From: Candidatus Omnitrophota bacterium | GTDB lineage: Bacteria; Omnitrophota; Gorgyraeia; Zapsychrales; Zapsychraceae | NCBI GenBank assembly: GCA_021108075.1 | Contig: JAIORP010000090.1 | Location: 79,828 to 143,827, forward strand | Direction: 5' to 3' | DNA length: 64,000 nt | Shown: positions 10,824-58,255 of the stretch, piece by piece | How the letters are laid out: each line of letters opens with the position of its first letter | How positions within the stretch are numbered: position 1 is the first letter of the stretch | Notes under the pieces: generated by a model | Database searches by the model: none | The model's input: only the letters and a program-made list of their open reading frames with translations | What the model was told of the DNA's origin: nothing | Position numbers and translations under genes: made by a program

Positions 10824-10847
10824 TTTATTCGGAGTCAATGCGGAATA

Positions 10848-10950: not shown

Positions 10951-10993
10951 AATTGGCTAAATGTAGAATTTTATTTTTATTTTATATCCTCCT

Positions 10994-14454: not shown

Positions 14455-14555
14455 GAAAATATTTGGTATAATTATCCTATTTGAATGCTAATATTTTCAT
14501 TCAAACGTCGAGAATATTATAATGACTTTGGTAATTTTTTAATGGATTTGACATT
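14455..14555. repeat. MITE/REP-like repeat, copy c (subfamily B, degenerate left end)
   Basis: CCTATTTGAATGCTAATATTTTCATTCAAACGTCGAGAATATTATAATGACTTTGGTAATTTTTTAATGGATTTGACAT aligns with copy b. Confidence 0.55.
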
Positions 14556-14597
14556 ATTAGCCTGTTTAGAGCTTGAAAGTCATAAAAAGGAATTGCG

Positions 14598-15326: not shown

Positions 15327-15432
15327 TACCAATTCCATTAAATAATGACCCAAATTTTATCTCGCTTTTCTCGAATGCTTTTATGGGAACAGCGAGATGA
15401 AATCAGAAATATTATTTAATGGAATTGGTCGT
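15326..15432. repeat. MITE/REP-like repeat, copy d (subfamily B) with covarying TIRs
   Basis: Left TIR ATACCAATTCCATTAAATAATG and right TIR ATTATTTAATGGAATTGGT, which are exact reverse complements and carry the AATT variant. There is an inner inverted repeat ATCTCGCT...AGCGAGAT. Confidence 0.55.
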
Positions 15433-22164: not shown

Positions 22165-22396
22165 GTTGACCCAATTTTATTGATTTATTAATTTTATATT
22201 AGCTGCTAAAATAATATTCCCTGCTGTGCGCGTTAGGGTGCATACATATAGAACCAATACTCTATAAAGGGCGCTAAACTTCTCTGGTATCCGTGGATAG
22301 CTGAGAGAGGTGCCCACGTGGTGACAACGGTTCACCATATTGTGTATCCGACGGCATAAGCGGGGAATTTTTTTATTTAACCATAATATTAAACTG

Positions 22397-22440
22397 TTAC
22401 CAAATCCATTAAATGGGACAATTATTTAATGGATTTGGCA
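22397..22440. repeat. Minimal palindromic unit of the repeat family, copy e (TIRs back-to-back)
   Basis: ACCAAATCCATTAAAT gggaca ATTATTTAATGGATTTGG. Confidence 0.5.
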
Positions 22441-30041: not shown

Positions 30042-30425
30042 ATGAAAGAATTGACAGGAAGGATTATTTTTGGAAACGGTGCGGCCGCCCAGCGTTTTAA
30101 AATCTGCCGGCTGGTCATGAAGAAGTACGGCCTGGTTTTTCCCCCGCTTCATTTTGGAACAATCAACATCAAATTAGACATGCCTTTTGAGACACCCTAT
30201 TATGGGATTATTATCCCGTATCATAAATTGGATGAAATTTCTTGCATGAATAAAGAATACTGGCAGTTCATTCCTGTTGATCTCGTGAACCAACGTAAGC
30301 GGCAGGGCTATATTCTTCGCACGAGCCTGAATATTCACGGTGACCGTGTGATTGAATTATTGACGGAAGACATCGCGACAGAGGCAGAGAAAGACAAGAC
30401 GATAACCGTAACCTTAACGCTGTAA
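30042..30425 (+). CDS. Hypothetical protein
   Basis: ORF with a strong SD (GAGGAGGG) before the ATG at 30042. No recognisable domain. Confidence 0.4.
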   Translation: MKELTGRIIFGNGAAAQRFKICRLVMKKYGLVFPPLHFGTINIKLDMPFETPYYGIIIPYHKLDEISCMNKEYWQFIPVDLVNQRKRQGYILRTSLNIHGDRVIELLTEDIATEAEKDKTITVTLTL

Positions 30426-30441
30426 TGGATTTGGTATTAAA
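30423..30441. repeat. Solo half-site of the repeat family, copy f (TAATGGATTTGGTATT)
   Basis: Matches the right TIR. It overlaps the stop codon of the upstream ORF. Confidence 0.35.
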
Positions 30442-33008: not shown

Positions 33009-33037
33009 TTGCTGGAAACAGCATATACCAGTATAAT
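33009..33037 (+). promoter_or_regulatory. Sigma70-type promoter TTGCTG-17-TATAAT for the PHP-uvrD unit
   Basis: Consensus spacing and -10. It overlaps a CTGG-N12-CCAG dyad. Confidence 0.45.
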
Positions 33038-33083
33038 AAAGGCTTCTTCACTAGGCTCAAAAAACATTAGGATTGTTAGACTT

Positions 33084-34370
33084 ATGAAATTCTATGCCGA
33101 TTTTCACATCCATTCACATTATTCAAGGGCAACAAGCAAACTATTGAACTTAGAACATTTGCAATATTGGGCGCAATTAAAAGGGCTTCAAGTTGTGGGG
33201 ACTGGTGATTTTGTTCATCCGGGATGGCTTGATGAACTTAAAGAAAAATTAGAACCAGCTGAAGAGGGGTTTTTTCGATTAAAGAAAGAATATGCCAATA
33301 GCGGTCCGGCACCGGTTCCTGAAAAATGCCGGGGGGAAGTCCGCTTTATGCTTGTTGTGGAAATTTCCAATATTTATAAAAAAGCGGATAAAGTCCGTAA
33401 GAATCATAATGTTGTTTTTGTTCCCTCTTTCCGTGCGGCAGATCTTTTACAGCAACGATTAGATGCGATTGGCAATATTCGCTCGGATGGCCGTCCTATT
33501 TTAGGATTAGACGCGCGTGATTTGCTGGAAATGGTCTTAGAGACAGATCCGTTATCTTTTTTGGTTCCTGCGCATATATGGACGCCCTGGTTTTCTGTTT
33601 TAGGATCAAAAAGCGGATTTGATCAGATAGAGGGGTGCTTTGGGGATTTAACGAAACATATTTTTGCTGTTGAAACAGGGTTGTCCTCGGATCCCCCGAT
33701 GAATTGGCGTTTAACACAGTTAGACCCGTTTGTTTTGATTTCAAATTCGGATGCGCATTCTCCTTCGAAATTAGCGCGGGAATTTAATATTTTTGAAACA
33801 AATTTTGACTATCCTTCGATTTATCAGTCCTTGAAGAATAAAAAAAATAAGGGTTTCAAAGGAACGGCTGAGTTTTTTCCCGAAGAAGGGAAATACCATT
33901 ATGACGGCCATCGCGCGTGTCAAGTCCGCTTAACCCCAGAGGAAACGATCAAGCAGAAAGGATTATGTCCTGTTTGCGGTAAACCTGTGACGGTCGGTGT
34001 CATGTCGAGAGTTGAGGCGTTAGCCGATCGGTCGCGAGGGGAGAAATCCGCCCGTTGGCGTCCATACCACAGTTTAATCCCTCTTCCTGAAATCATTTCT
34101 GAGGCAAAAGGTGTTGGCCCGAACTCGAAAACCGTGCAGAATATCTATCATCAGATGTTGCTGAAATTAGGACAGGAAGTCTATATATTAATGGATGCCC
34201 CTATTAATAATATAGAAAAGGTAGCGGGTGATTTAGTGGCTGAAGGTATTCGTCGTGTGCGCACGGGAGACGTGAATATTGCGGCTGGATATGATGGAGA
34301 ATATGGAAAAATTCAATTGATCAATCAGGAAGACCGCAAGGCCCGGGCGGGGCAACTGTCCTTATTTTAA
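33084..34370 (+). CDS. PHP-domain metal-dependent phosphoesterase with C-terminal Cys cluster (endonuclease Q-like)
   Basis: N-terminal FYADFHIHSHYSRATS (PHP motif I), further His/Asp motifs and a C-terminal CPVCGKP. The start is placed at the ATG downstream of the promoter because the track TTG at 33009 is the -35 box. Confidence 0.65.
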   Translation: MKFYADFHIHSHYSRATSKLLNLEHLQYWAQLKGLQVVGTGDFVHPGWLDELKEKLEPAEEGFFRLKKEYANSGPAPVPEKCRGEVRFMLVVEISNIYKKADKVRKNHNVVFVPSFRAADLLQQRLDAIGNIRSDGRPILGLDARDLLEMVLETDPLSFLVPAHIWTPWFSVLGSKSGFDQIEGCFGDLTKHIFAVETGLSSDPPMNWRLTQLDPFVLISNSDAHSPSKLAREFNIFETNFDYPSIYQSLKNKKNKGFKGTAEFFPEEGKYHYDGHRACQVRLTPEETIKQKGLCPVCGKPVTVGVMSRVEALADRSRGEKSARWRPYHSLIPLPEIISEAKGVGPNSKTVQNIYHQMLLKLGQEVYILMDAPINNIEKVAGDLVAEGIRRVRTGDVNIAAGYDGEYGKIQLINQEDRKARAGQLSLF

Positions 34371-36456: not shown

Positions 36457-38322
36457 ATGAAATCAAAAAAACGACTTAAAATTTTATTTGTTTTAACCGT
36501 AACAACATGTTTTATTTCCGTCGGCTCCGCAGAGGAACCCCCGATCATGGATTTAGACAAGATTGTCATATCGGCCCACCGCACCGAAACCGATTTGGAT
36601 GATGCCGTTGATAATATTGACGTCTACTCTGAAGAATTTCTCGAGCAGTTGCCGGCTGATAATTTAGGTGAAGCCTTGCATTATTTGCCGGGGGTGGATG
36701 TTTTGATCAATGGCAGTTTCGGCCAGGCGAAAAACCTGACGATCTATGGGTCCCAGGTGCGCCATGTGCTGGTCGCCATTGACGGGATTCCCATGAATAC
36801 GCAATTATCAGGCCAAGCAAATCTGAGCCGTTTGCCTATAGGGATTATTCAAAGAATCGAAGTGATCAAGGGCCCGGCTTCAAGCGCATGGGGTTCCAGC
36901 CTGGGTGGCGTTATCAATGTCATCACAAAGCAAGCCCCCAAAGAAGACGGGCTAACAGGAGAATTTTCCGCTTCTTTTGCCGAACACCACACCTTTAAGG
37001 AGACCCTCAATTTATCGGGACGCTCAAAGAAAATAAGTTATTTTTTTTCGGGGAATCATATGATATCTGACGGGATCAAGTCAAAGTCCAGGGCAGAAGA
37101 AAATAAGTTTTATCAAAAAATCAGGTATGATCTGACGGATGATATGTCGGTAACAGGTTCTTTTGGATATACGGGCGCGCAGATCAGTGACGGCGTGAAT
37201 CCGAACAATCGGTGGTACCATCTACCCTATAACACGCGTTTTGGGAAACTTCAATGGGATACTCTTCAGGACGAACAGCAATGGCATGCGGCTTATAAAT
37301 ATAATGATCAGGATGTCACAACTGATTTTTATCACGCGACAACAGATGCCCTTCTTTCTTCGACGGTCAGCCATAACGTCTATCAGGGATTAAGTCTGAA
37401 TGGACACCGGCGGATTAACCCGCAATGTTTATTGGTGACGGGGGTTGATTTTGATTGGCATCGATTAAAATCGAACAATTATTTGGAAGAAGCAAAACAC
37501 GTCGCGATGCAATCTCCGTATGTCAATCTGTTTGTTGAAAAAGGCCCGTGGTCTTTCGTCCCTGGCCTCAGATATGATAACAACAACCGGTTTGGCGAAC
37601 AGGTGAGTCCGAGCTTTGGGATGGTGTATAAAAGTTTGACCTTTCCTGATTTGAGCATTCAAACAAAGGTGTCACGCGCGTTCAACGCTCCGCCGTTATT
37701 GTGGATTTATAATGAAGACCTCGCATGGCTGGTCGCGCCGAATCCTGATTTAAAAGCAGAAAGAGGCCTTGTTTATGAAATCGGAATAGATAAAGCGTTA
37801 ACGGATAAATTAGATGTGAAGTTGAATTTTTACCGGGCAGATATTAAAGACGCGATTGCGGTAACGTTTAACGGGACCGCTTTTCAATCAGAAAATTTTA
37901 AGAAATTCCGCCGGCAAGGAGTGGAATTGATTTGGGCGTACGATTTTTCTGATGAATGGCGAATTTTTGGGAGTGGCGCGTTCAATGATGTTGAGAACAG
38001 ACAGACAAAGGAAACCGTTCGCGATTCCAGCATCGCGCGGCAAAGCTATCAAATAGGCGTCAATTATCAATATCAAGAAGAATGGTTTGTCTATCTTTCC
38101 GGATTTTATAAGCGCTGGAGCTCTGCGGCCTCTTTGGAGCCGAATGACAGGAAAATTATTTTAGACCTGAGCGTTAAGAAAAAAATAAAGAATATTTTTA
38201 AGGAGAACGATCTGGATGTTTTTTTGAACATTCACAATATCACCAACAGCAAATACTGGGCTTCTATTAATAATCCCTTACCTGGCCGGTACTTTGAAGG
38301 AGGCTGTACCGTTTCTTTTTAA
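36457..38322 (+). CDS. TonB-dependent outer-membrane receptor
   Basis: Signal peptide, TonB-box-like DKIVISA, plug and barrel domains, and a terminal aromatic residue (...VSF). Confidence 0.85.
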   Translation: MKSKKRLKILFVLTVTTCFISVGSAEEPPIMDLDKIVISAHRTETDLDDAVDNIDVYSEEFLEQLPADNLGEALHYLPGVDVLINGSFGQAKNLTIYGSQVRHVLVAIDGIPMNTQLSGQANLSRLPIGIIQRIEVIKGPASSAWGSSLGGVINVITKQAPKEDGLTGEFSASFAEHHTFKETLNLSGRSKKISYFFSGNHMISDGIKSKSRAEENKFYQKIRYDLTDDMSVTGSFGYTGAQISDGVNPNNRWYHLPYNTRFGKLQWDTLQDEQQWHAAYKYNDQDVTTDFYHATTDALLSSTVSHNVYQGLSLNGHRRINPQCLLVTGVDFDWHRLKSNNYLEEAKHVAMQSPYVNLFVEKGPWSFVPGLRYDNNNRFGEQVSPSFGMVYKSLTFPDLSIQTKVSRAFNAPPLLWIYNEDLAWLVAPNPDLKAERGLVYEIGIDKALTDKLDVKLNFYRADIKDAIAVTFNGTAFQSENFKKFRRQGVELIWAYDFSDEWRIFGSGAFNDVENRQTKETVRDSSIARQSYQIGVNYQYQEEWFVYLSGFYKRWSSAASLEPNDRKIILDLSVKKKIKNIFKENDLDVFLNIHNITNSKYWASINNPLPGRYFEGGCTVSF

Positions 38323-38333
38323 AAAAAAGTTAA

Positions 38334-38356
38334 AAAAGCAGAAAAGAGTCAGTTTT
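38334..38356 (+). promoter_or_regulatory. Conserved 23-nt upstream motif AAAAAGCAGAAAAGAGTCAGTTTT (site 1), 13 nt before a CTATTTAC -35-like box
   Basis: A near-identical motif with the same spacing to CTATTTAC recurs at 44195-44222. Confidence 0.4.
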
Positions 38357-38434
38357 AGGCGCTGTGACCCTATTTACGAAAGGGTGGGGATAGTGTAAAG
38401 TAACAGATATCTAGCCTATTTCGCCCTAGTCACC

Positions 38435-40087
38435 ATGATGTCGAAAAAGAAAAAAATTTTTAATTTGTTATTTGTCATCCTTTTTATCTTATGCGTTGGT
38501 TTCTTTTTTAAAAACAATGTTTCCATAAAAATATACCGTCACTTTAAAGCAGCAATTTCAACGGAAACAGAAAGCACGTCACATAATGAAAAATATGGGG
38601 GCACGCTTGTCTTGGGAACATCCAACGCCCCTGCAATTATAAATCCGATACTTACGCAGCATAGCGTTTCAGTCATCCTGATAGGTTTAATTTTTGATTC
38701 ACTTATTCGTGTTGATGAATCCGGGAATGTTGTTCCGGGGCTGGCCTATAAATGGGACATTTCTGATGACGGCCTAGATTACATTTTTTACCTCAGAGAA
38801 GATGTTTATTTTCATGACGGTGTGCCATTAACCGCGGAAGATGTTAAGTTTACCTATGATTTGCACCGTTCCAAAAATATTCCGTCCTTCCGGTATGTGA
38901 GCTATGATGCGGTTCAAGACATCGTCGTTTTGGATAAATTGACAATAAAAGTTTCTTTGAAAAAGAAAAATATTTTTTTCCTGAGACGGCTATTGTCTTC
39001 CATCGTCCCCAAACATGTTTATGAGGGAAAGAATTTAGCTGAAGCGGATTTTAACTATGCGCCGGTTGGCAGCGGGATCTATAAATTTCATTCGTGGAAT
39101 AAAACAACGAATCAGATTGAATTGGTTGTCAATGAACATTATTTTGACGACCGGGCAAATTTAGACCGGATCATCATCCGGACATACAAAACGATTCCGC
39201 AATTATGGGCCGCGTTATTAAGAGGCGAAGTCGACCTCATAAAATATATTTCCCGCAAGGATTATAATGTTTTGAAAAAAGACCCGACTTTTCAGACATT
39301 TAAAATTGTTGGGTTTATCTTCTCGGCGATATATTTTAACCCGGACAGCCAGCTATTGTCAGACCCTGAGGTGCGCAAAGCCGTTTCGATGAGCATTGAT
39401 CGCAAACAATTGATTGATGCCTTGTCGCAAGGAGGCGCGGAATGCTATTCCCCCCTGTCGATGGACAGAGACAAAGAGAGTGACACATATCGCTATGATC
39501 CTTTAAAAGCAAAATTAAAACTCATGCACCGCGGTTGGATGGATGCGGATGGTGATGGGATATTAGAAAAGGATCTTCAGGATTTTGAAATACGCTTAAT
39601 GGTTAATCAACGCAGTGATTTTTTTACCAAATTAGCGCTTCTTTTACGGCAGCAGTTGAGCGAGGTCGGCATTAAGGTGACAATATTGTTATATGCCGAC
39701 GAGTCGGACTTGAATACGGATTATGTCCGAACGCATCGGGCCAACGCGTGGCTGCGTTTTTTTATGGGGGGAACGAGGGATGAAGATCGATTGTATCCTA
39801 TTCTCGGCACGTGGAGTTCATCTTCCAATCTGTTCGGTCAGATATGGAAATATCATAATCCGGAGATTGACCGCATTTTTAACGCTGTCAGCCAGGCGGA
39901 CAAACCTGATCGCGAAAAATTGTTCCGGCAGGCCGGTCAAATTTTATTCGAGGACCAACCGGTCAGTTGCCTGTTTTACACGGAAGATTATCACGCGGTT
40001 TCTGCCAGGATTAAAAATGTTGAATTTTTTTTTTATGGCTATGTGTCAGCTTATTCGATCAAAGATTGGTACATTCAAGATCATTAG
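38435..40087 (+). CDS. Solute-binding protein, family 5 (OppA/DppA-like peptide-binding), membrane-anchored
   Basis: N-terminal signal anchor and an SBP_bac_5-like core (GGTLVLGTSNAPAIINP...). No permease or ATPase genes are adjacent. Confidence 0.8.
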   Translation: MMSKKKKIFNLLFVILFILCVGFFFKNNVSIKIYRHFKAAISTETESTSHNEKYGGTLVLGTSNAPAIINPILTQHSVSVILIGLIFDSLIRVDESGNVVPGLAYKWDISDDGLDYIFYLREDVYFHDGVPLTAEDVKFTYDLHRSKNIPSFRYVSYDAVQDIVVLDKLTIKVSLKKKNIFFLRRLLSSIVPKHVYEGKNLAEADFNYAPVGSGIYKFHSWNKTTNQIELVVNEHYFDDRANLDRIIIRTYKTIPQLWAALLRGEVDLIKYISRKDYNVLKKDPTFQTFKIVGFIFSAIYFNPDSQLLSDPEVRKAVSMSIDRKQLIDALSQGGAECYSPLSMDRDKESDTYRYDPLKAKLKLMHRGWMDADGDGILEKDLQDFEIRLMVNQRSDFFTKLALLLRQQLSEVGIKVTILLYADESDLNTDYVRTHRANAWLRFFMGGTRDEDRLYPILGTWSSSSNLFGQIWKYHNPEIDRIFNAVSQADKPDREKLFRQAGQILFEDQPVSCLFYTEDYHAVSARIKNVEFFFYGYVSAYSIKDWYIQDH

Positions 40088-40133
40088 TCTGGCATTTATC
40101 GCGTAACAATAATGATGAAAGGAGGTGAAAATC

Positions 40134-40244
40134 ATGACCATTATTAAAAGAGGGCATAAAGAATTAAGCCAGGCTTCTATCCTTGCATGTTGCTGGCCTC
40201 CAGGGTGTGAAATCATGGATCTTCCATGGGAAGAAGGCGAGTAA
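40134..40244 (+). CDS. Candidate RiPP precursor peptide, 36 aa: MTIIKRGHKELSQASILACCWPPGCEIMDLPWEEGE
   Basis: Too short for the ORF track. Strong SD AAAGGAGGTG 7 nt upstream. It sits in the 46-bp gap between the SBP and the rSAM gene, and its C-terminal half is Cys/Trp-rich. Confidence 0.5.
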   Translation: MTIIKRGHKELSQASILACCWPPGCEIMDLPWEEGE

Positions 40245-40271
40245 GTTTTTAATCATTATTAATGTTACGGT

Positions 40272-41681
40272 GTGCTGTGGGTCCGCAGCACACCGCGCAG
40301 GGGAGATCGTGTGCTCTTATCCAAATATTGTGTCATTGTCCCTGATTACCCGTATAAAGGGCAGCACGTGGTGTTCCATACCGGGACCCAGGCCCTTGTT
40401 CTGCTCGATTCGCAGGCCCTGTCATACCTTAAAAATGAAATACGCTTAAATACATTGCCCCCTAAAAAACAAATAGAGTATCAAAAGATGCTTCCCGAAT
40501 TGCGTCAGATGGGGATACTTGTCAAAGACCAGCAGGAAGACGCCGCTTACCTTGAATCTTTTTTTGATCAGTTAAAACGTCAACGCATCAGAAAAACATG
40601 GCCTGTGACCATTTTGACAACAGACGCCTGCAATTTTCAATGCGTTTATTGTTTTGAGGAAAATGCCCGCCGCAATATTGCGATGAATTTAGAGGTGCAA
40701 ACAGACACACTGGCTTTCATCAAAAATCGGATGACCAGCGATAAATATGAACGGCTCTATGTGACTTTTTACGGGGGGGAGCCGTTATTAAAACCGGCGG
40801 TGATCACACATCTCGCTTCGAACTTAAAAAATTGGTCGAAGAAGGCGGGTGTCGTTTTTGAATTTATGCTCCAGACGAACGGCTATTTATTAAGCCCGAA
40901 TCTGGTGCGCTCCTTGATTCCGTTAGGTCTGGACCAGGTCCGTGTCAGCTTGGATGGTCCAAGAGATGTTCATGATGCGCGCAGACCGTTACGTTCGGGA
41001 GGGCGGACGTTTGATACGATTATAAAGAATATTTTAGCCAGCATGGATTCGATTAAAATTTGCGTTTCCGTCTGCTACGAGAAAGACCATTTGCAGGATA
41101 TCGACGCGCTTTTATCCTTTTTAAAGCAAAAAAATATGCTGCATCAATTGGGACGTTTTATTTTTTCCCCGATTCATCCCCGGTTAGGGACGCCTGAGGA
41201 TAAAAACCGCATTCAGCATTTTGATTGCATGATCAATTATCAAGACGCCAATTTGGTCCAATCGATTTCCGTGATACGAGACATATTAAAAACCTATGAT
41301 GTGGACGATAGCCGGAAGGGATTAGCGATTTCAGCCTGTCCTTTGATGCGCGAAAAAGGAGGTTTGACCATCGATCCGTGCGGGTATATTTACAAATGCA
41401 ATTCCATGATCGGTTTTTCGAAATTTTCCGTCGGTCAGGTGAAAGACGCACAGTTTAACCCGCGTGCGGATTATTTCGTGTCTTTAGATCCCTGGCGGTC
41501 CTGTCCGAATGATTGTCCGTATCTTCCCCTTTGTGGTGGGGGATGCCGGATGTCCGCGTACTTTAAATATAAAGATTTTAAAGAGCTGGACTGTCATCGT
41601 GATTATTTGGATCAGATGATACCGGTTTTTATCAAAGAAGAATATACCCGTTTGACGACCGAAAAGCAGTATTCCTCATGA
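40272..41681 (+). CDS. Radical SAM/SPASM-domain peptide-modifying enzyme (AnSME/sactisynthase-like)
   Basis: CNFQCVYC (CxxxCxxC) follows a ~115-aa N-terminal extension that resembles a peptide-recognition domain. C-terminal SPASM Cys clusters (CPLM...CGYIYKC...CPNDCPYLPLCGGGC). The GTG start is uncertain. Confidence 0.85.
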   Translation: MLWVRSTPRRGDRVLLSKYCVIVPDYPYKGQHVVFHTGTQALVLLDSQALSYLKNEIRLNTLPPKKQIEYQKMLPELRQMGILVKDQQEDAAYLESFFDQLKRQRIRKTWPVTILTTDACNFQCVYCFEENARRNIAMNLEVQTDTLAFIKNRMTSDKYERLYVTFYGGEPLLKPAVITHLASNLKNWSKKAGVVFEFMLQTNGYLLSPNLVRSLIPLGLDQVRVSLDGPRDVHDARRPLRSGGRTFDTIIKNILASMDSIKICVSVCYEKDHLQDIDALLSFLKQKNMLHQLGRFIFSPIHPRLGTPEDKNRIQHFDCMINYQDANLVQSISVIRDILKTYDVDDSRKGLAISACPLMREKGGLTIDPCGYIYKCNSMIGFSKFSVGQVKDAQFNPRADYFVSLDPWRSCPNDCPYLPLCGGGCRMSAYFKYKDFKELDCHRDYLDQMIPVFIKEEYTRLTTEKQYSS

Positions 41682-41717
41682 TCTTCCTGACAATATATTT
41701 TCCTTCGCCTGTTTATT

Positions 41718-41831
41718 ATACCAAATCCATTAAATAATAACCAAAACCGATTCTGCTTTCCTCGACTTTTTCGCGAGAATATCAGAATTGAAATAGAACA
41801 ATTGCATTTTTCGGGTTAATGGATTTGGTAT
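41718..41831. repeat. MITE/REP-like repeat, copy g (subfamily B)
   Basis: TIRs ATACCAAATCCATTAAATAAT / TTAATGGATTTGGTAT with an inner inverted repeat TTCTCG...CGCGAGAATATC. Confidence 0.65.
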
Positions 41832-42206
41832 TATTTTAAGTTTATGCCTGTCCGTGCAGAAGCGAACGCAGGTCAAGGACAGCTTATCTGCAACGGTGAT
41901 CGAATACAAGACAGAACTCCTGCTGCCCGTGTTTGCCGGATTTGTCTGCGATAGATCCGGAGAATAAAAGCTAAGGAATATTACTTGAGCGACAAAACCG
42001 GCTTAAATTGTTGGATTTATCGTTGAAAACATCGCGAAGGCCTTCATTCTGCCAGAAGCTTGAATGGCGGCTGACATTGCGGGTATATGCTCCAGGCAGG
42101 AGAGTATAAATATCTTTTGATAATAGCTGGATATTATAGTAAATTAAACTAAGAATAATTTAAAGATAGAGATCGAAGGAAAATAGTATCTGTATGCTGT
42201 CCTGCT

Positions 42207-44012
42207 ATGAAATCATTCTACCTAAAGTTAAGAAATTTTATGCCCCGCCGTATCTGGTCGCAGATCTTTATCGTCCTTATTATCGCGGTTATTGTTCCCC
42301 TTTCTCTCCTCGGATTTCTTCTTACGAGTACCAGCCAGGAAGCTGTTAAAGTCAGTGTTTTGCGGGATTACAAGCAAATTGCGACACAAGCTACCGGTGA
42401 AATTAGTCAACACATTTTAGGTGCGAGACAAGCTTTGAGTGTGACGGCGTCTATTTTAGGCACATTGCATGCAGATAGGTGGCGGCAAGAAACAACCATC
42501 GTTGAGTTAGCATTAAAATATCCTATTTTTACCCGCATTGCCTCCATTGATAAAAGCGGACTGGAAATAACAACATCACAGTTAGGAGCACCGCTTCAAA
42601 ACAGAGCAGGGGATGTGCCTTTTATAGAGGCGATGAAAGGCGTGGAATATTTATCTGCCGTCATATTAGCGGACAATTATATCCCTCAAATGACAATGGC
42701 CGTGCCGATTAAACGCCTAGGAAAAATTCAGGGGGTTTTATTGGCGAACCTGAACTTGCGTACGGTTTGGGATATCGTCGACAAGTTGCGTTTTGGCCAA
42801 ACAGGGGAGGCCGTCATCATTGATCAGACAGACCGGGTGATTGCCCATCAGGACAAAAAATTGGTTTTGAATAATCCCAAAAATTACATTGACGGTTTTT
42901 TGAAATATATTCAGCCTGGTGTTAGCGGTAGCGCAGAAATCGTCGATAACAGTAATCGCGGGGTGATCATTGCCTACGCTCCGATAACGGATTTGAATTG
43001 GAAATTGATTATCTTTCAAAAACAAGAAGAAGCGTACTCATTTCTGAAAAAGATGCAATATCAATCACAGATTATTTTTATTTTTAGTCTGGTCATAACG
43101 ATTTTTATTAGTATCTTTCTTGCCCGGTGGATGAGCCAGCCTTTAAACAAAATTATCCAGGGGACCCAAAAAATAGCCCAAGGTGATTTTTCTCAATTTT
43201 TACGCGTACAGCGTCGAGATGAAATTGGTAAATTGTTCTTTTCTTTTAATCGCATGACGCGACGCCTGCGGGAAGCGAGAAAAGTGGAGAAATTGTCCAT
43301 TATTGGAAAAGCTGCCGCGGCGATTGCTCACGAATTAAAGAATTCCTTGGTTCTTGTCAATACGTTTATTGAATTGTTGCCGAAAAGGCACAAGGACCAG
43401 AAATTTATTAAAGAATTTTTTCAAACGGTTCCTCAGGAGTTGGAATCCTGGAACACCATGTTAAAAAATATGATGAGTATTAACCCTCCGGAACTAGAGA
43501 ATATTCCTTTCAGTGAACTTTCGATTAATGTGATTGTCAAAAATATAATCACATTGGTGCAGATGAAAGCCGACCAAAAAGACATTGCAATCAAATTATC
43601 ATTTGATGAAGCCAATCCTGTGGTCCAATGCAATGAAGAAAAAATAAGACACGCGATTCTAAATATTATGACAAATGCCTTAGATGCCACCCCTTATGGG
43701 GGAGAGGTGGAAATACAAACAAAATGCATTTTGCGTTGCCAGGATCGGTTGGAGTCTAAGGTGGAAATTGTGATTATAAATAGTGGCCAACATATTGATG
43801 AATCAAAGATCGATAAAATTTTTGAGCCGTTTTATACCACGAAAGGGGGTGGATTCGGTTTGGGCTTAGCGATTAGCATGGAAATCGTCAAAGCTCATAT
43901 GGGTACGATTACGGTTGTGAATCAATTTCCGCAGGGCGTTGTCTTTACCATTATTTTGCCTTCCAAGAACGTTTCTGCTTCGACACCATCTAAGACCAAA
44001 TTCAATAAATAA
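42207..44012 (+). CDS. Sensor histidine kinase (2 TM, extracytoplasmic sensor domain, HAMP, HisKA, HATPase)
   Basis: TM1, a ~260-aa periplasmic domain, TM2, HAMP, H-box IAHELKNSL and G-boxes GGFGLGL. Confidence 0.85.
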   Translation: MKSFYLKLRNFMPRRIWSQIFIVLIIAVIVPLSLLGFLLTSTSQEAVKVSVLRDYKQIATQATGEISQHILGARQALSVTASILGTLHADRWRQETTIVELALKYPIFTRIASIDKSGLEITTSQLGAPLQNRAGDVPFIEAMKGVEYLSAVILADNYIPQMTMAVPIKRLGKIQGVLLANLNLRTVWDIVDKLRFGQTGEAVIIDQTDRVIAHQDKKLVLNNPKNYIDGFLKYIQPGVSGSAEIVDNSNRGVIIAYAPITDLNWKLIIFQKQEEAYSFLKKMQYQSQIIFIFSLVITIFISIFLARWMSQPLNKIIQGTQKIAQGDFSQFLRVQRRDEIGKLFFSFNRMTRRLREARKVEKLSIIGKAAAAIAHELKNSLVLVNTFIELLPKRHKDQKFIKEFFQTVPQELESWNTMLKNMMSINPPELENIPFSELSINVIVKNIITLVQMKADQKDIAIKLSFDEANPVVQCNEEKIRHAILNIMTNALDATPYGGEVEIQTKCILRCQDRLESKVEIVIINSGQHIDESKIDKIFEPFYTTKGGGFGLGLAISMEIVKAHMGTITVVNQFPQGVVFTIILPSKNVSASTPSKTKFNK

Positions 44013-44099
44013 TTCTTCTGATTTCTCCTCGTTATTTGCATAAAAGCATTCGTAAAAAATGATGAGATTTTTTGAAATTATTGAATGAAATTGGTATAA
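43993..44099. repeat. MITE/REP-like repeat, copy h (subfamily A), left TIR overlapping the HK stop codon
   Basis: ACCAAATTCAATAAATAATT...AATTATTGAATGAAATTGGTATA. The internal sequence aligns with copy a, and the last 6 codons plus stop of the HK lie within the TIR. Confidence 0.55.
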
Positions 44100-44194
44100 T
44101 TACGCAGCGTTGATTTTTTGCCGTCTTTACGTCCACCTGTAAGAATGATGATTTGATCTGGTATTTTTTATATGTTTTTATAAAATATATGAAG

Positions 44195-44222
44195 AAAAAG
44201 CAGAAAAAAGTCAGTTTTTTCC
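44195..44222 (+). promoter_or_regulatory. Conserved upstream motif GAAAAAGCAGAAAAAAGTCAGTTTTTT (site 2), followed by a CTATTTACA -35-like box and TAAGAAT -10
   Basis: Paralogous to site 1 at 38334. It lies 64 nt upstream of the AraC-type RR gene. Confidence 0.4.
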
Positions 44223-44285
44223 GGATTGAAACTATTTACAAATTATAAAAATTGCGTAAGAATAATAGAAACGGAGGGGGAGGAA

Positions 44286-45038
44286 ATGATATCTGAAAGA
44301 ATCGTGGTTATTGATGACAACATGAAAATTATCAAAAGTATTAAAATGGCGTTGATCGAGTATGAAATTATCGATTTCCCCTGCGGGGAAAAAGCCATTG
44401 AGTTTTTTAAAAAACCAAATGAGATTAACCTGGTGCTTTTGGATGTCTTTATGGATGGGATGAACGGCATAACTGTCTTGAAAGAATTAAAAAAAGTGAA
44501 CAAAGATTTATCCGTTATCATTATGACGGCCTATGGCTCAAAGGATATTGTTTTACAGGCCTTGCGCAGCCATGCGGATGACTTTATAGAGAAACCGTTT
44601 AACATTAATGATTTAAAAGGAAAGATAAAGAATATTTTGAAGGAAAAAATCTATCTTTCATGCGCCAATTCTTCCAAAGAAGAGCAGATTGACCGCATTA
44701 AACGTTTTATCGACCGGAATTACAATAATGCTAACTTAGAATACATTTCAAACGAACTTTGCATAAGTCCTAAATATTTAAGCCGTATGTTTAACCGAAA
44801 GAGCAACTGTTCTTTTCGGACTTATAAACTCGGTGTCAAAATAGCTAAAGCAAAGTATTTTCTTAAAGAGACGAATATAAATGTTAGTGAAATTGCTGTT
44901 GAATTGGGATATCAGAACCCGGAATCGTTTATGCGGATTTTTAAGAAGATAACGACGATGACACCTATGCAGTATCGGAAAAAGTTTAACCTTAAACAAC
45001 ATCGATCAAACAATATGAAAGCTGCCGTATCATTTTAA
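44286..45038 (+). CDS. Response regulator with AraC-type HTH output domain
   Basis: REC domain (VVIDDN...LLDVFMDG...) plus a C-terminal AraC/XylS HTH. SD GGAGGGGGAGG. Confidence 0.8.
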   Translation: MISERIVVIDDNMKIIKSIKMALIEYEIIDFPCGEKAIEFFKKPNEINLVLLDVFMDGMNGITVLKELKKVNKDLSVIIMTAYGSKDIVLQALRSHADDFIEKPFNINDLKGKIKNILKEKIYLSCANSSKEEQIDRIKRFIDRNYNNANLEYISNELCISPKYLSRMFNRKSNCSFRTYKLGVKIAKAKYFLKETNINVSEIAVELGYQNPESFMRIFKKITTMTPMQYRKKFNLKQHRSNNMKAAVSF

Positions 45039-45041
45039 ATT

Positions 45042-46226
45042 ATGATGAAAAAAATATTAATCGTTGATGATGATAATTGCACACGTTTATCGATTAAACG
45101 TCTCTTATCCTCATATGATGTGATTGAAGCCAATCATGGGCAAGCTGCTATCGAGCTGGTTCAGAAGCATGCCCCCGATCTTATTCTCCTAGACCAAATG
45201 ATGCCGCAAATGGATGGGTTGGAAGTTTTAAAAAGAATTAAGGCGATCGACGAGGATATTCAATGTGTGATTGTGACGGCACAGGGCACGTTGCAGTTAG
45301 CCGTGCAAAGTTTGAAGCACGGGGCATTGGATTTCATTGTGAAACCGTTCGAGGCCTTTGTTCTTTTGCATACGGTTGAGCGGGCTTTAGAGCACGTGGA
45401 CCTCATTCAATCCAAACGTAAAGTGGGTCAGGAAAAGGAAAAAGCACAGGCAGAGTTGCTGCATTATAAAAATGATTTGGAAAAGATTGTCGAAGAAAGA
45501 ACAAAAGAGTGCAAAGAGGCGCAACAGAAAGCAGAAAAGGCGAATAAGGCAAAGTCTGAATTTCTCGCTAATATGAGCCATGAACTGCGGACACCGATGC
45601 ATGGAATTTTGAGTTTTTCTAAGTTTGGTGTCGAACGGTATCAAGGGGAAAAGAGAGAGACATTAAGGGACTATTTTGGGGAAATAAAAAGTTGTGGCGA
45701 CCGCTTGCTCAACCTGTTGAATGATTTGCTGGATTTGTCAAAATTAGAAGCGAACAAAGTCCAGTATCAATTTAATCCTGTTTGCATTCAAGATTTTTTT
45801 CAATCTGTCGTGGATGAACTGAAGGCCTTTTCCGCTGAAAATGGAATCGAGTTGAAGTTGGACGGCAATGCTTTGACGGAAACCGTTAACCTTGATAAAG
45901 AAAAAATGGTTCAAGCCCTCCAGAATTTATTATCTAACGCCATTAAATTTTCTGCGAAGGACAAAGCGGTTGTCTTGTCGGCGGAGCATCGGCAAGAGCA
46001 TTTTTTGATCGCTGTTCAAGACAATGGCATTGGAATTCCGGATGAGGATTTAGATACTATTTTTGACACGTTTTATCAAAGTCAGCTGACAAAGTCAAAA
46101 GATCAGGGCTCAGGTTTAGGTTTATCCATCGCACGCAAGATCATATCGGATCATAACGGATTGGTCTGGGCTGAAAATAATCCGGATGGCGGCGCGATTT
46201 TTTATATCCTCCTGCCGAAGGATTAA
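45042..46226 (+). CDS. Hybrid signalling protein: N-terminal receiver (REC) + HisKA + HATPase (cytoplasmic)
   Basis: REC (LIVDDD...LLDQMMPQMDG), coiled-coil, H-box MSHELRTPM and G-boxes GSGLGLSIA. Confidence 0.85.
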   Translation: MMKKILIVDDDNCTRLSIKRLLSSYDVIEANHGQAAIELVQKHAPDLILLDQMMPQMDGLEVLKRIKAIDEDIQCVIVTAQGTLQLAVQSLKHGALDFIVKPFEAFVLLHTVERALEHVDLIQSKRKVGQEKEKAQAELLHYKNDLEKIVEERTKECKEAQQKAEKANKAKSEFLANMSHELRTPMHGILSFSKFGVERYQGEKRETLRDYFGEIKSCGDRLLNLLNDLLDLSKLEANKVQYQFNPVCIQDFFQSVVDELKAFSAENGIELKLDGNALTETVNLDKEKMVQALQNLLSNAIKFSAKDKAVVLSAEHRQEHFLIAVQDNGIGIPDEDLDTIFDTFYQSQLTKSKDQGSGLGLSIARKIISDHNGLVWAENNPDGGAIFYILLPKD

Positions 46227-46238
46227 GGGGGTGTCGTT

Positions 46239-47327
46239 ATGAAAACAGAAGAAAAGTTTTTTGTGGACGCGACGAAAAATAGAATCTTAATTGTTGATGA
46301 TGAACATGTCAATATCCGGATTCTTAAGACCATTCTATCTGACGATTATGATTTGACCGAAGCTTCTTCAGGGGAAGAAGCTATTGAACTGGCCGAAAGC
46401 CAAAAATTTGATTTGATCCTATTGGACATTATGATGCCGGGCAAGGATGGTTATGAGGTCTGTCGTTATTTGAAGACCAGTAAAAGGCATGCAACCATTA
46501 AAACGATTTTGGTATCAGCCCGGGCGATGCTGGAAGAGCGCTTGAGGGGATACGAGTGTGGAGCGGATGATTATATCGTTAAACCGTTTGACGGGGATGA
46601 GCTTCTTTCAAAAGTAAAAGTTTTTTTACGTTTAAAGTCGATGGCCGAGATCGAAGAGATTAAAGGCAATTTATTAAAACTGATTGCGCACGAACTTCGA
46701 ACCCCGTTAAACGGCCTATTAGGGTTTGCGGCTTTATTAGAAAAAAGCAAAACGATTAGTGATGGTGATAAGCAATATGTTATGCACATTCTTAGCTGCG
46801 GGAATCGGCTGCTGGAGTTCTCTCAAAAAGCACTTTTATTATGTGACCTAAAAAGCAATTATAAGATAACTAAAAAAGACAGGCATTTAGTCAAAATACT
46901 GGAAGAGACCATCCGCTCTCTTCAATGGAAGGCCGTGGATAAAAAAATACGCTTTTGTGTTGTCAATAAAATGGATAAAGTCGCAGCGTTTGATCCAATG
47001 ATGATGAATTTTGCTATTCGGTTTGTTCTTGATAATGCCATTAAGGTTTCACCTCAAGAAAGTGAAATTGCTATACATATTGAAGAGAAGAACGACTGGT
47101 GTTATATTCATATCCAAGACCAGGGTCCTGGCATCAGCAATGGGCAGATGGATCAAATTTTTCAATTGTTTATTGTGGATGATGTGATGCAGCATAGAAA
47201 TGGCCAGGGGCTGAGTTTGCCTATAACCAGAGAGATTATGCGTTTGCATCAAGGACGCCTGCGAATATGTAATAATCCATCCTCAGGGGCAACAGTTGAA
47301 TTGTCTTTTCCCCTTGTAAGTGAATAA
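46239..47327 (+). CDS. Second REC + HisKA + HATPase hybrid kinase
   Basis: REC (ILIVDDEHVN...LLDIMMPGKDG), H-box IAHELRTPL and HATPase (NGQGLSLPI). Confidence 0.8.
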   Translation: MKTEEKFFVDATKNRILIVDDEHVNIRILKTILSDDYDLTEASSGEEAIELAESQKFDLILLDIMMPGKDGYEVCRYLKTSKRHATIKTILVSARAMLEERLRGYECGADDYIVKPFDGDELLSKVKVFLRLKSMAEIEEIKGNLLKLIAHELRTPLNGLLGFAALLEKSKTISDGDKQYVMHILSCGNRLLEFSQKALLLCDLKSNYKITKKDRHLVKILEETIRSLQWKAVDKKIRFCVVNKMDKVAAFDPMMMNFAIRFVLDNAIKVSPQESEIAIHIEEKNDWCYIHIQDQGPGISNGQMDQIFQLFIVDDVMQHRNGQGLSLPITREIMRLHQGRLRICNNPSSGATVELSFPLVSE

Positions 47328-52931: not shown

Positions 52932-54287
52932 ATGAAATGGATTCCTTTGGTGATGTGTTTTGTTTTGGTTTCAGGAGGTATCTGTGAGGCTAAAGTTGAT
53001 CTCGTGAGTCTTCCGAGTCGCGATAGTGTGCAGTTAACGATTTATAATTCCGCAGATTTAACACTGGCAAAAGAAAGCCGGTCCCTTACCCTGAAAGAAG
53101 GTTTCAATGATCTTCAATTCTCCTGGGCGAATACCTTGATTGATCCAACGAGCTTAGAGCTTGTTCCATTAACAAATGCTGATCGAATTGACGTTCAAGC
53201 ACTAACCTATCCTCCGAGAGTTAAAAATTTGGGATTATGGAACATTGACAGTGGCCTGAGCGGACAAATTCCTGTTGAAATTAGCTATTTGACGAGTGGT
53301 TTAAGTTGGCGTGCTTTTTATCTTGGAACATTAACACCGGATGAAAAGGAAATGAGGTTAAAGGGATATGTCCGCGTTCTTAATAATAGTGGCGAAGATT
53401 ATGAAAATGCTCAAGTCCGTCTGATTGTCGGCAAGGTTCACATCATTGATCAGATAGCCCAATTGGCTCAAAGGCAATATCCGTATGAACGTCCGGGAAT
53501 TTATCCTGCGGCACAACCGGAGGTGCACTCAAAACGAAGTCGCCAGGATGTGCGCGTGATGAAGTCCGTCATGATGGGAGAGGGTATAGCTTTTGGCTCT
53601 GTCGCCCCGATGGAGACCAAGGAGATTATTAAAGAAGGTTTGAGCGAATATTTTTTATATACGATTGAGGGCCGGGAAACCATTCTAAATGGATGGTCAA
53701 AGAGATTACCGAGCTTTGATGTCGCGAGCGTGCCAGTGGTTAATCTGTATAAATATGAAGAGGAGCGATACGGTTATCAGGTGATCCGTTTTTTAAGTTT
53801 TAAAAATGATGAGGATCACCTGTTGGGGGAAACACCGATTCCCGGAGGTTTATTAAAAGTATTTCGAAATGTTGATGCGGAGAATCATTTAAGCTATGAA
53901 GGACAAAGTGAATTCAAGTATATCCCGATTGACGAGGATGTTGAGCTGAATTTAGGTGCGGTGCAGAATATCGTTGTTGAACCCAAGCTGATGAATCTTA
54001 AAACGGAAAATTTTATGTTTGACCGTCATGGGAATATTAATGGATGGGATGAGGTCCGAACGTACAAAATGGAAGTGAAAAATACGCGTCAGGTTCCGGT
54101 TGAGGTTGAGATTAAACGGAATTTTAATGCTCTCAAATGGGATATCCACAATGAAGGTGCTGAGGTGAAATATGAAAAAATTGACGCCAATACAGTGAAA
54201 TACAAATTAGCGTTACAATCAAAAGAAAATAAAACGTTTCAATATACTCTACGGACATTTCATGGCCGTAGAGGAGACCACAAATAA
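52932..54287 (+). CDS. Secreted ~450-aa protein, paralog P1 of a 5-gene tandem family (possibly the DUF4139/DUF4140 'MuiA-like' family, unverified)
   Basis: Signal peptide, conserved N-terminal domain KVDLVSLPSRDSVQLTIYNSADLTL..., SYLTSGLSWRAFYLGTL, a variable central segment and a conserved C-terminus ending FHGRRGDHK. Confidence 0.7.
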   Translation: MKWIPLVMCFVLVSGGICEAKVDLVSLPSRDSVQLTIYNSADLTLAKESRSLTLKEGFNDLQFSWANTLIDPTSLELVPLTNADRIDVQALTYPPRVKNLGLWNIDSGLSGQIPVEISYLTSGLSWRAFYLGTLTPDEKEMRLKGYVRVLNNSGEDYENAQVRLIVGKVHIIDQIAQLAQRQYPYERPGIYPAAQPEVHSKRSRQDVRVMKSVMMGEGIAFGSVAPMETKEIIKEGLSEYFLYTIEGRETILNGWSKRLPSFDVASVPVVNLYKYEEERYGYQVIRFLSFKNDEDHLLGETPIPGGLLKVFRNVDAENHLSYEGQSEFKYIPIDEDVELNLGAVQNIVVEPKLMNLKTENFMFDRHGNINGWDEVRTYKMEVKNTRQVPVEVEIKRNFNALKWDIHNEGAEVKYEKIDANTVKYKLALQSKENKTFQYTLRTFHGRRGDHK

Positions 54288-54320
54288 TGGCAATCATCGG
54301 ACCTTAATTAGGAGGCGATA

Positions 54321-55460
54321 ATGAAAAAAAATATGTATTTAAAAAGTGTCATCATGTTAAGTATGTTTTGTTTCTTGAGTTTGTCTGTGGCTGAGGCCCG
54401 GATCAAACTTGTGGCCCTTCCCAAGAGGGCGGACACCATCATCCGGTTGGACAATCCCCAATTTACATTAATAGAAGAAGAACGTGTGCTGACTTTACAA
54501 CAGGGATTAAACAAAGTTGATTTCTCCTGGAACGGTGTCAGTATTGATCCTGATTCGATCCGCATTGATATCCTGTCCCATTCCGACCAGGTCACACTTT
54601 TAAACGTGAGCTATCCGCCAAATGAGAATGCGCTTGTTTGGGAAATTAGCAGTGCCGGAGCGCGGGAAGAAAAGATCCGCGTCAGCTATTTGCTTTCCAA
54701 TATTGACCGATTGATCACATATAAATCCGTTGCTGATAAAGCGGAGACACAGGTCAACTTTAAGAGTCATCTCATTTTGAGGAATTTTTCAGGGGAAGAT
54801 TTTGCTAATGCGAAAGTGTTGCTTGATTATGGTGAATCCTTTGAGGAAGGCATCCGACACGAAGAAACAAAACAACTGCTGTTTCTTAAGGCTGGAACGG
54901 TTCCGATCGAAAAGGTATGGCAATGGGATTCCAAAAAACAAATTTGGGACCCGGAAGAAGTTGATCAAAATGTCGGGATTCCGGTCCATTACCGCATAAC
55001 AAACACAACGGACTCGAACTTAGGTCAGAACGCGTTATGGAATGGTAAAATGCGTGTTTTTCAATTGGATGGTCATGGCAGCACGATTCTGTTAGGCGAA
55101 GATGCTGTTGATTTAACTCCGGTCGGTGAAGATATGGAAGTTTATATCGGTGATAGCCGGGATTTGGTGGTGACGCAGCGTAAGATGGTCGACAAGCAGA
55201 CAAATATTCGGCGTAATACGAGTGGCCGCGTTGTTTTATATGATAACGAAGAGCAGGTAACGGCTAAAATTGAGAACTTCAAAGATACAAACGCGAAATT
55301 AAAAATGGTCCAACATATCCCTGGAGAATGGGATATGCATAGCTGCAATTTCGAATATAAGAAGGAGAACGCAAATACGATTGAATTTGAAATTGATGTG
55401 CCTGCGCAGGGTAAGGCGGAGCTTGTTATGCATTACTTTAGACGAAATATTCGCAATTAA
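54321..55460 (+). CDS. Secreted protein, paralog P2 (divergent, shorter, lacks variable insert)
   Basis: Same N-terminal pattern (RIKLVALPKRADTIIRL...VSYLLSNIDR...) and 379 aa. Confidence 0.6.
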   Translation: MKKNMYLKSVIMLSMFCFLSLSVAEARIKLVALPKRADTIIRLDNPQFTLIEEERVLTLQQGLNKVDFSWNGVSIDPDSIRIDILSHSDQVTLLNVSYPPNENALVWEISSAGAREEKIRVSYLLSNIDRLITYKSVADKAETQVNFKSHLILRNFSGEDFANAKVLLDYGESFEEGIRHEETKQLLFLKAGTVPIEKVWQWDSKKQIWDPEEVDQNVGIPVHYRITNTTDSNLGQNALWNGKMRVFQLDGHGSTILLGEDAVDLTPVGEDMEVYIGDSRDLVVTQRKMVDKQTNIRRNTSGRVVLYDNEEQVTAKIENFKDTNAKLKMVQHIPGEWDMHSCNFEYKKENANTIEFEIDVPAQGKAELVMHYFRRNIRN

Positions 55461-55473
55461 AGGAGGCCGGGCA

Positions 55474-56850: not shown

Positions 56851-56866
56851 GGATAAAGGATTTTTA

Positions 56867-58243: not shown

Positions 58244-58255
58244 GACCAGGGGATT

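Follow-up and report, generated by a model that had tools for sequence, protein, structure and literature searches.

A TonB receptor, solute-binding protein and sensor kinase conserved around a radical SAM peptide maturase in Omnitrophota

In bacterial three-component systems, a solute-binding protein (SBP) binds a ligand and contacts a histidine kinase (PMC10384115, PMC8050422). For instance, the family-5 SBP known as CBP signals to the dCache-like kinase ChiS of Vibrio, LuxP signals to LuxQ, and the family-5 protein AibA binds autoinducer-2 (AI-2) (PMC8050422). A three-component system of an SBP, a kinase and a REC-AraC regulator is also formed by CuaD, CuaS and CuaR of Ruminiclostridium cellulolyticum (PMC10384115). 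Here we describe a related arrangement in a 64,000-nucleotide stretch of DNA from a Candidatus Omnitrophota bacterium (contig JAIORP010000090.1, positions 79,828 to 143,827), which we call the window and in whose numbering coordinates are given. In this window a TonB-dependent receptor, an SBP, a short ribosomal peptide, a radical SAM/SPASM enzyme, a sensor kinase and a response regulator are encoded one after the other. As in CuaDSR, CBP-ChiS and LuxPQ, a stand-alone exported SBP lies beside an extracytoplasmic (d)Cache-like kinase and a REC-AraC regulator, and there is no cognate permease or ATPase. However, the ligands of those systems are sugars or AI-2 and their targets are importers, whereas the genes found here are those for the precursor of a peptide that is made by ribosomes and modified after translation (RiPP), a radical SAM maturase and a TonB receptor, with no importer.

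The locus can be compared with three further groups of systems. Methanobactin operons encode the precursor MbnA, MbnB/C, the TonB transporter MbnT and the OppA-like protein MbnE, for which no inner-membrane partner is known (PMC7558416). The window likewise combines a ribosomal, cysteine-containing peptide with a dedicated TonB importer and a periplasmic protein of the family-5 type, but its maturase is a radical SAM/SPASM enzyme rather than MbnB/C. Regulation also differs, in that mbn operons are regulated by a sigma/anti-sigma pair and the system described here by a periplasmic-sensing kinase. In Firmicutes, small peptides modified by radical SAM/SPASM enzymes are similarly tied to cell-cell signaling, as with the SCIFF ranthipeptides of clostridia and streptide, which is under Rgg/SHP control (PMC8326336). 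Those organisms lack an outer membrane, and their clusters contain neither a TonB receptor nor an SBP-kinase pair, whereas in the present case the signaling parts are fixed and the hosts are diderm candidate phyla. Lastly, the SBP shares its Pfam family (PF00496) with the binding proteins of the Opp, Dpp and Nik importers, but the two permeases and the ATPase or ATPases of such importers are not encoded with it.

The described family closest to the maturase itself is that of the "geopeptide" radical SAM maturases, TIGR04280, which is its best NCBIfam match at 261.7 bits (below the 400-bit cut-off); the homolog in the related locus L089 scores 264.1 bits against the same model. True TIGR04280 enzymes score far higher, 535 bits for that of locus L015 (Nitrospiraceae) and 570 bits for that of L017 (Desulfobacteraceae). 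These two loci resemble the window in having a short CC-motif peptide just upstream of the maturase and a TonB receptor before the peptide, and in L015 the genes downstream include one for a PF04392 binding-protein-like protein as well as those for a kinase and a regulator (L015 7340-13800; L017 7781-11296). In contrast, the window's enzyme is only ~28% identical to those of L015 and L017, its precursor has a consensus of its own, and a family-5 SBP and a dCache kinase are its fixed partners. Judged by its sequence, we place the enzyme in a sister group of the geopeptide maturases and not in the geopeptide family proper. We found no paper using the word "geopeptide" in the open-access literature and preprints, and the locus provides a first functional context for this uncharacterized radical SAM family, in which a layout for recapturing and sensing the product may be general.

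Each part of the locus is of a known kind, and it is their fixed combination in one cassette of diderm candidate phyla that appears to be undescribed; a search of open-access papers and preprints found no published description of it. We regard the cassette as a system in which three-component sensing is combined with RiPP biosynthesis and TonB-dependent recapture, and which falls outside the geopeptide loci proper, the Opp importers, methanobactin and the classical phosphorelays.

Conservation of the cassette across related loci

The stretch from 36.4 to 47.4 kb of the window contains genes on the + strand only. It opens with the TonB-dependent receptor (36457-38322; 621 amino acids; Pfam Plug and TonB_dep_Rec_b-barrel), whose start lies 2 nt past the UvrD stop, followed by the family-5 SBP (38435-40087; 550 amino acids; Pfam SBP_bac_5, E 6.9e-72). 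Next come the open reading frame (ORF) of a 36-amino-acid precursor peptide (40134-40244), identified by its translation MTIIKRGHKELSQASILACCWPPGCEIMDLPWEEGE and also by gene calls in public assemblies, and the radical SAM/SPASM maturase (40311-41681; 456 amino acids from a GTG codon; Pfam Radical_SAM and Fer4_12). After a 525-nt spacer (41682-42206) follow the sensor kinase, the response regulator and two hybrid kinases, which are treated in the next section. The block is flanked by UvrD upstream and ClpB downstream, and its genes are also found on 6 public contigs, where the copies of hybrid 2 are identical. A preliminary description of positions 38334-47327 had listed the genes from the SBP to hybrid 2, and we find every one of them at the place described, on the + strand. 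The true unit is nevertheless larger than that interval, since it opens at 36457 with the TonB receptor, which is the fixed first member of the cassette.

Relatives were gathered by means of the radical SAM enzyme, from species-representative genomes, from look-ups of single homologs and from a metagenome scan with the family-specific N-terminal domain. A first genome scan with the full radical SAM alignment was too generic and returned mostly unrelated SPASM enzymes; its family members were L007-L013 only, with L014, L015 and L017 more distant. The metagenome scan with the N-terminal-domain alignment gave 44 loci, nearly all of them family members. Homologs of the window's proteins were placed in the related loci by tblastn, for a set of 51 family loci in which the denominators below count the loci with enough contig.

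Across the 51 loci we find a conserved gene order that is kept wherever the contig suffices: TonB receptor, SBP, short peptide, radical SAM enzyme, an optional ABC protein with transmembrane and nucleotide-binding domains (TMD-NBD), and dCache kinase. The orthologous kinase lies downstream of the radical SAM gene in 26/26 loci, with alignments that reach the sensor domain, and the SBP lies directly upstream of it in 32/34. A TonB receptor precedes the SBP in 24 of 26 relatives, the ABC TMD-NBD gene is present in 21 of 26 and the REC-AraC regulator in 14 of 26. The radical SAM enzymes of these loci are 26-73% identical to that of the window, and the genomes include some labeled Omnitrophota, Planctomycetota (L010) and Auribacterota (L011); the cassette thus persists across Omnitrophota and neighboring candidate phyla. 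The flanking genes vary, with UvrD and ClpB found only in the close relatives L087 and L088, and with a cellulase upstream and other genes downstream in L089, which lies on a 3.36-Mb contig. Furthermore, the divergence of the kinase, the SBP and the receptor tracks that of the radical SAM enzyme. Because the order is kept while the flanks change, and because these three proteins diverge together with the enzyme, we conclude that the cassette moves or is inherited as one unit. The observed gene association is far beyond chance.

The coupling of the SBP, precursor and maturase genes with two-component genes, as suggested by the preliminary description, therefore stands up to a synteny check in relatives, where it is carried by the counts for the kinase and the SBP. 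Given that the synteny holds and that a promoter-like element is common to both operons (see below), a peptide-responsive circuit with a stand-alone SBP is a reasonable reading of the locus. What this adds to the earlier account is a conserved trio of receptor, SBP and kinase around a RiPP; what it takes away is the view of the hybrid kinases as a conserved relay.

In most relatives the gene between those for the radical SAM enzyme and the kinase encodes an MsbA/HlyB-like ABC TMD-NBD transporter (Pfam ABC_membrane and ABC_tran). This transporter is missing from the clade of the window, represented by the window itself, L087, L088, L089 and L097. No ABC exporter homolog was found anywhere in the 64-kb window, and tblastn at E up to 50 detected no ABC remnant in the 525-nt spacer between the maturase and the kinase. 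Since the close relatives are also without the gene, its loss is clade-wide and not a recent deletion. As for importers, no Opp-type permease or ATPase is annotated at window positions 1-57 kb and none is present in any related locus, where the sole ABC-type match is the TMD-NBD exporter-type gene. The observation that the SBP has no permease or ATPase partner next to it, already made for the window, is thus borne out for the related loci as well.

The precursor ORF is preceded by an AGGAGG ribosome-binding site. Homologous CC-motif ORFs lie between the SBP and radical SAM genes in more than 40 loci, one per locus, and share the consensus MEIIrKGsDxVxxxxPLxCC[FWY]PxG, followed by a variable tail, at a length of roughly 31-36 amino acids. 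None of nine precursors searched against NCBIfam gave a match at E up to 10; as these include two that lie beside true TIGR04280 enzymes, the search says nothing on whether the window's precursor is a geopeptide. At L112 (~290-390) the precursor has CS replacing the otherwise invariant CC (MEIIRKGSDKVFDIEPRTCSFPVGLTAFRKG).

Based on alignment to the family model, the true start of the maturase is probably the GTG at 40311. The enzyme has an N-terminal domain resembling those for leader recognition, and the cysteines of its CX3CX2C motif and SPASM domain (C107, C111, C114, C343, C363, C398, C402, C408 and C412) are invariant in 27 homologs. With this cluster motif, these SPASM cysteines and a short conserved precursor ORF adjoining, it has the hallmarks of a radical SAM/SPASM RiPP maturase. 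Its next-best matches after TIGR04280 are the families CefB, TIGR04463, PapB and SCIFF. Because these are Cys-directed maturases, several of them thioether-forming, the product of the window's enzyme would by analogy most likely carry thioether-type cross-links on the CC[FWY]PxG core.

The TonB receptor has a signal peptide, a Plug domain and a 22-strand barrel, without an N-terminal signaling extension, and its nearest solved relatives are CirA and BtuB. The SBP can be aligned from end to end with NikZ, AppA and OppA-type proteins, and its nearest PDB sequences are the nickel-binding NikZ (4oet) and AppA (1xoc). Its NCBIfam matches include NikA- and CntA-type models, and it scores far below every NCBIfam equivalog cut-off. 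The public gene call for the SBP starts at 38612 (491 amino acids) and so loses the N-terminal export or anchor segment. The distance between the start codon and the upstream shared element described below favors the long form that starts at 38435, because the element sits 58 nt ahead of this ATG both in the window and in L087. The N-terminus of the long ORF reads KKKK, after which comes a hydrophobic stretch that lacks an obvious AXA cleavage site nearby. That the SBP is membrane-anchored, as had been stated earlier, is plausible for the window's clade only; most orthologs have ordinary cleavable signal peptides, and export signals, either signal peptide or signal anchor, are found across the orthologs.

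Signaling proteins and a shared promoter-like element

The sensor histidine kinase (42207-44012, + strand; 601 amino acids) has the Pfam architecture TM-dCache_1-TM-HAMP-HisKA-HATPase_c, where TM stands for a transmembrane segment. Its H-box reads AHELKN, and the dCache_1 domain lies between the two hydrophobic segments and is extracytoplasmic. In a PDB sequence search, the sensor domain gave weak matches only to the membrane-proximal half of the ligand-binding domains of PctA/B/C, which are uninformative on the ligand. The response regulator (44286-45038, + strand; 250 amino acids) is a REC-HTH_AraC protein (Pfam Response_reg, HTH_18 and HTH_AraC); its ORF could open at 44226, and public gene calls use 44286. 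It is the least conserved part of the locus, and relatives without an AraC-type regulator have a NarL-type (L106) or NtrC-type (L010) protein, a bare receiver, or no regulator adjacent.

Downstream of the regulator lie two cytoplasmic REC-HisKA-HATPase proteins (both + strand and assigned with Pfam), hybrid 1 (45042-46226; 394 amino acids) and hybrid 2 (46239-47327; 362 amino acids), which are paralogous and ~30% identical. The cytoplasmic kinases at this position vary among relatives, which have no such hybrid, one, two, or REC-PAS-kinase forms. For instance, L088 has one REC-kinase, the counterpart of hybrid 1; L089 has a REC-PAS-kinase and a receiver; L011 has two REC-kinases; and L109 has a PAS-kinase. 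Related REC-(PAS)-kinases to hybrid 1 are found in L089, L011 and L091. Pfam detected no HPt domain in the four signaling proteins, and none was found in the neighboring genes. A classical His-Asp-His-Asp relay is not encoded here, because the HPt domain is absent, and because the regulator and the hybrids vary among relatives, the REC-AraC regulator and the two hybrids are variable add-ons and any relay is a lineage-specific elaboration, not part of the core. The four-protein, multi-step phosphorelay of the preliminary description is not supported as a conserved feature: the HPt domain is missing, the regulator is found in 14 of 26 relatives, and the hybrids differ in both number and architecture.

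The two operons of the locus share a promoter-like element. The upstream regions of the SBP and the regulator have a 68-nt direct repeat in common, the core of which, AAAGCAGAAAAGAGTCAGTTTT, has exactly 2 copies in 64 kb where 0 are expected. The first copy of the element, AAAAAGCAGAAAAGAGTCAG-N17-CTATTTAC (38333-38377, + strand), stops 58 nt short of the start codon of the SBP; the second, AAAAAGCAGAAAAAAGTCAG-N17-CTATTTAC (44195-44239, + strand), stops 47 nt short of that of the regulator. Alignment gives the fuller form AAAAAG-n-GAAnAnAGTCAG-N17-CCTATTTAC. Ahead of the SBP the element is kept in L087, L089 and L007, and ahead of the regulator it is kept in L087 and L088. Within the window's clade, only these two promoter positions carry the exact form AGTCAG-N17-CTATTTAC, and in L089 the second copy precedes the REC-PAS-kinase operon. 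Between the element and the SBP start codon, positions 38379-38434 (GGGGATAGTGTAAAGTAA...TTCGCCCTA) are more conserved in L087 (2581-2637) than is the SBP protein itself (59% identical), which hints at a regulatory leader.

The kinase gene is preceded by a different conserved block. A promoter scan found a sigma-70-like candidate there, TTGATA-17-TAAATT (42117-42145, + strand), in a block that is conserved upstream of the kinase gene in L087, L088 and L097 and that differs from the shared element. The receptor is apparently co-transcribed with uvrD. We read this pattern as transcription of the receptor and the kinase independently of the element, with the SBP-precursor-maturase operon and the regulator-hybrid-kinase operon under its common control. 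The presence of the element ahead of both operons is consistent with activation of the precursor operon by the regulator, and we infer that the REC-AraC protein binds the element.

The intergenic regions of the window also contain a dispersed repeat of ~90-120 nt (8808-9005, 10845-10953, 14539-14557, 15323-15429, 22394-22438, 30422-30440, 41715-41834 and 44017-44100), which looks like a miniature inverted-repeat transposable element (MITE) or a repetitive extragenic palindromic (REP)-type element of the window's genome. The copy between the maturase and the kinase (41715-41834, unstranded) is ~120 nt long, has 19-nt terminal inverted repeats (ATTATACCAAATCCATTAA) and folds as a long hairpin. 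The spacer between the kinase and the regulator holds a partial copy (44017-44100, unstranded), also an inverted repeat and 84% identical over 84 nt to 8921-9004. We considered the 19-nt inverted repeat as a module-specific operator and rejected it, as it is part of the dispersed repeat, with 12 matches in the window versus 0.06 expected. The statement that the peptide and signaling genes are separated only by repeat elements is correct in that repeats exist in both spacers, but the 525-nt gap is only partly filled by the element. No Rfam family, riboswitches of the cobalamin and metal types included, matched positions 36-48 kb at E up to 1.

A proposed self-sensing loop and competing explanations

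Starting from the observed gene content, synteny, cis element and export signals, we propose a self-sensing loop in which the peptide is produced, recaptured and sensed, with the SBP as a co-receptor of the kinase. We give this proposal an even chance of being right. The maturase would modify the CC[FWY]PxG core of the ~31-36-amino-acid peptide, with thioether-type cross-links as the most likely outcome, and the product would then exit the cell, by way of the ABC transporter in most relatives. The dedicated TonB-dependent receptor would pull the product back over the outer membrane, and the SBP would capture it in the periplasm and act as co-receptor of the dCache kinase, in the manner of CBP-ChiS, LuxP-LuxQ and CuaD-CuaS. 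The kinase would phosphorylate the REC-AraC regulator, which in turn would drive both AGTCAG-N17-CTATTTAC promoters, that of the SBP, precursor and maturase and that of the regulator and hybrid kinases, resulting in positive feedback and autoinduction. The receptor, expressed with uvrD, and the kinase, expressed from its own sigma-70-like promoter, would stand outside the loop, and the two receiver-kinase hybrids would represent lineage-specific output branches. We consider a co-receptor of the kinase the most likely role for the SBP because this protein has no importer partner. Every step in the sensing half of the loop has a precedent in the literature. The joint presence of a precursor, a modifying enzyme, a sensor kinase and a regulator matches the layout of autoinducing-peptide systems.

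A number of observations count against the self-sensing loop. Metallophore uptake just as typically involves a TonB receptor and a family-5 SBP, for example MbnT and MbnE (PMC7558416), and the dCache domain could bind its ligand directly, without the SBP. The clade of the window is without the ABC transporter, which leaves peptide export unexplained there, and a leader peptidase is not present in the cassette. Moreover, in L091, L093 and L129 (~42-43% radical SAM identity) the radical SAM and ABC genes occur with neither an SBP nor a CC-precursor next to them within 10 kb; the kinase is also present in L091, the one locus of the three that has enough downstream contig. In these three loci the precursor may be located elsewhere or the enzyme may be orphaned. 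Lastly, in other clades no motif common to the SBP and regulator upstream regions rises above background. Because the element is observed in the window's clade alone and the regulator type is not conserved (AraC-type in 14/26), the autoregulatory loop is documented for one clade only.

A wider proposal, which we put forward tentatively and with considerable doubt, is that the cassette is a form of peptide quorum sensing for outer-membrane bacteria. An autoinducer modified by a radical SAM enzyme and too large for porins would be taken up by the TonB receptor and bound by an SBP docked on the dCache kinase, energy-dependent uptake would gate signaling, and the "geopeptide" systems of Desulfobacterota and Nitrospirota would work alike. 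Peptide signaling is well known in single-membrane bacteria and rare in bacteria with an outer membrane, as porins do not let peptides of this size through. The cassette provides a concrete, testable route for such signaling in outer-membrane bacteria, or otherwise a ribosomal metal carrier of a new type. Its parts, all of them small soluble or modular proteins, can be produced in E. coli, so that a culture of the organism is not needed to test the hypothesis.

The metal carrier just mentioned is the main alternative to the self-sensing loop and fits much of the same evidence, although we judge it unlikely. The CC-peptide would chelate extracellular metal, and the loaded peptide would be recovered by the TonB receptor and the SBP and sensed in the periplasm by the kinase, which would raise production and uptake; the ABC TMD-NBD protein might serve as an exporter or as an importer with an exporter fold. 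Such a peptide metallophore would explain why a TonB receptor and a family-5 SBP are conserved with a Cys-containing ribosomal peptide, and methanobactin likewise relies on a TonB transporter together with an OppA-like protein of the periplasm for which no inner-membrane importer is known (PMC7558416). The true geopeptide loci L015 and L017 also place a TonB receptor beside a CC-peptide, and the resemblance of the SBP to nickel-binding NikZ (4oet), its nearest solved relative by sequence, and to the NikA- and CntA-type models points in the same direction. However, MbnE (5ICQ) does not appear in the best 60 PDB matches of the SBP, and the MbnB/MbnC-type enzymes, by which methanobactin clusters are defined, are missing. 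Nor is a metal-responsive regulator, a metal riboswitch or a metal transporter conserved within the cassette or close to it. The window's clade has no inner-membrane importer either, and if the maturase acts like its nearest characterized relatives, thioether formation would consume the Cys thiols. Self-sensing and metal scavenging are not exclusive, as a loaded metallophore could itself be the sensed ligand.

Other explanations keep the gene association and give the peptide or the sensing a different role, or question the association altogether. RiPP production might be under environmental control, with the receptor, SBP and kinase detecting a nutrient or a foreign peptide and with the product acting elsewhere, for example as an antimicrobial or in predator-prey interactions. 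We find this improbable. The conserved promoter of the kinase and the transcription of the receptor with uvrD do make the sensing parts independent of the peptide operon, and many radical SAM-modified peptides, such as streptide, are under signaling control and have a separate function of their own (PMC8326336). An unrelated ligand is nevertheless hard to reconcile with an SBP that heads the precursor and maturase operon and is co-inherited with it (32/34), as is the receptor (24/26), and no nutrient catabolic or importer genes are associated with the cassette. Salvage of a cofactor similar to pyrroloquinoline quinone (PQQ) is more doubtful still, and we hold it to be very improbable. The precursor would be cut to a small molecule that is shared and re-imported by the TonB receptor and SBP, with the kinase monitoring its availability, much as PQQ itself derives from a ribosomal peptide by way of a radical SAM/SPASM enzyme (PMC8326336). 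The conserved core of the precursor, CC[FWY]PxG, is indeed very short and its tails are variable, but a single maturase is present, with no extra tailoring enzymes or proteases conserved in the cassette, and the similarity of the receptor to the PQQ importer PqqU is weak (90.9 bits versus a 1200-bit cut-off). Finally, chance adjacency of the two-component and peptide genes, as the 525-nt spacer with a mobile repeat between the two gene groups of the window might suggest, is refuted by the synteny census and has a negligible probability. The kinase is found in the same order in 26/26 loci, at radical SAM identities down to 26%, in several phyla and with changing flanks; in L089 it begins only 19 nt past the radical SAM gene, and in the window a cis element is common to both operons.

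Other features of the window

Three further regions of the window caught our attention. A 453-amino-acid protein encoded at 33009-34370 has no Pfam match and reaches TIGR00375 below threshold (190 versus a cut-off of 326.6 bits); the public record lists PF27218 (MJ0043_C) for it. At 52932-59611, 3' of the Lnt gene, there are several adjoining genes of which at least three are DUF4139 paralogs. At 12797-14314, a protein of 503-505 amino acids combines a FeeM/Acetyltransf_5 domain (N-acyl amino acid synthase-like) with a ThiF domain, and genes for a small Ser/Thr kinase and a hydrolase adjoin it. The strand bias of the window is unusually strict: over positions 1-64000, all ORFs of at least 200 amino acids lie on the + strand, and the GC skew is positive in each 1-kb bin.

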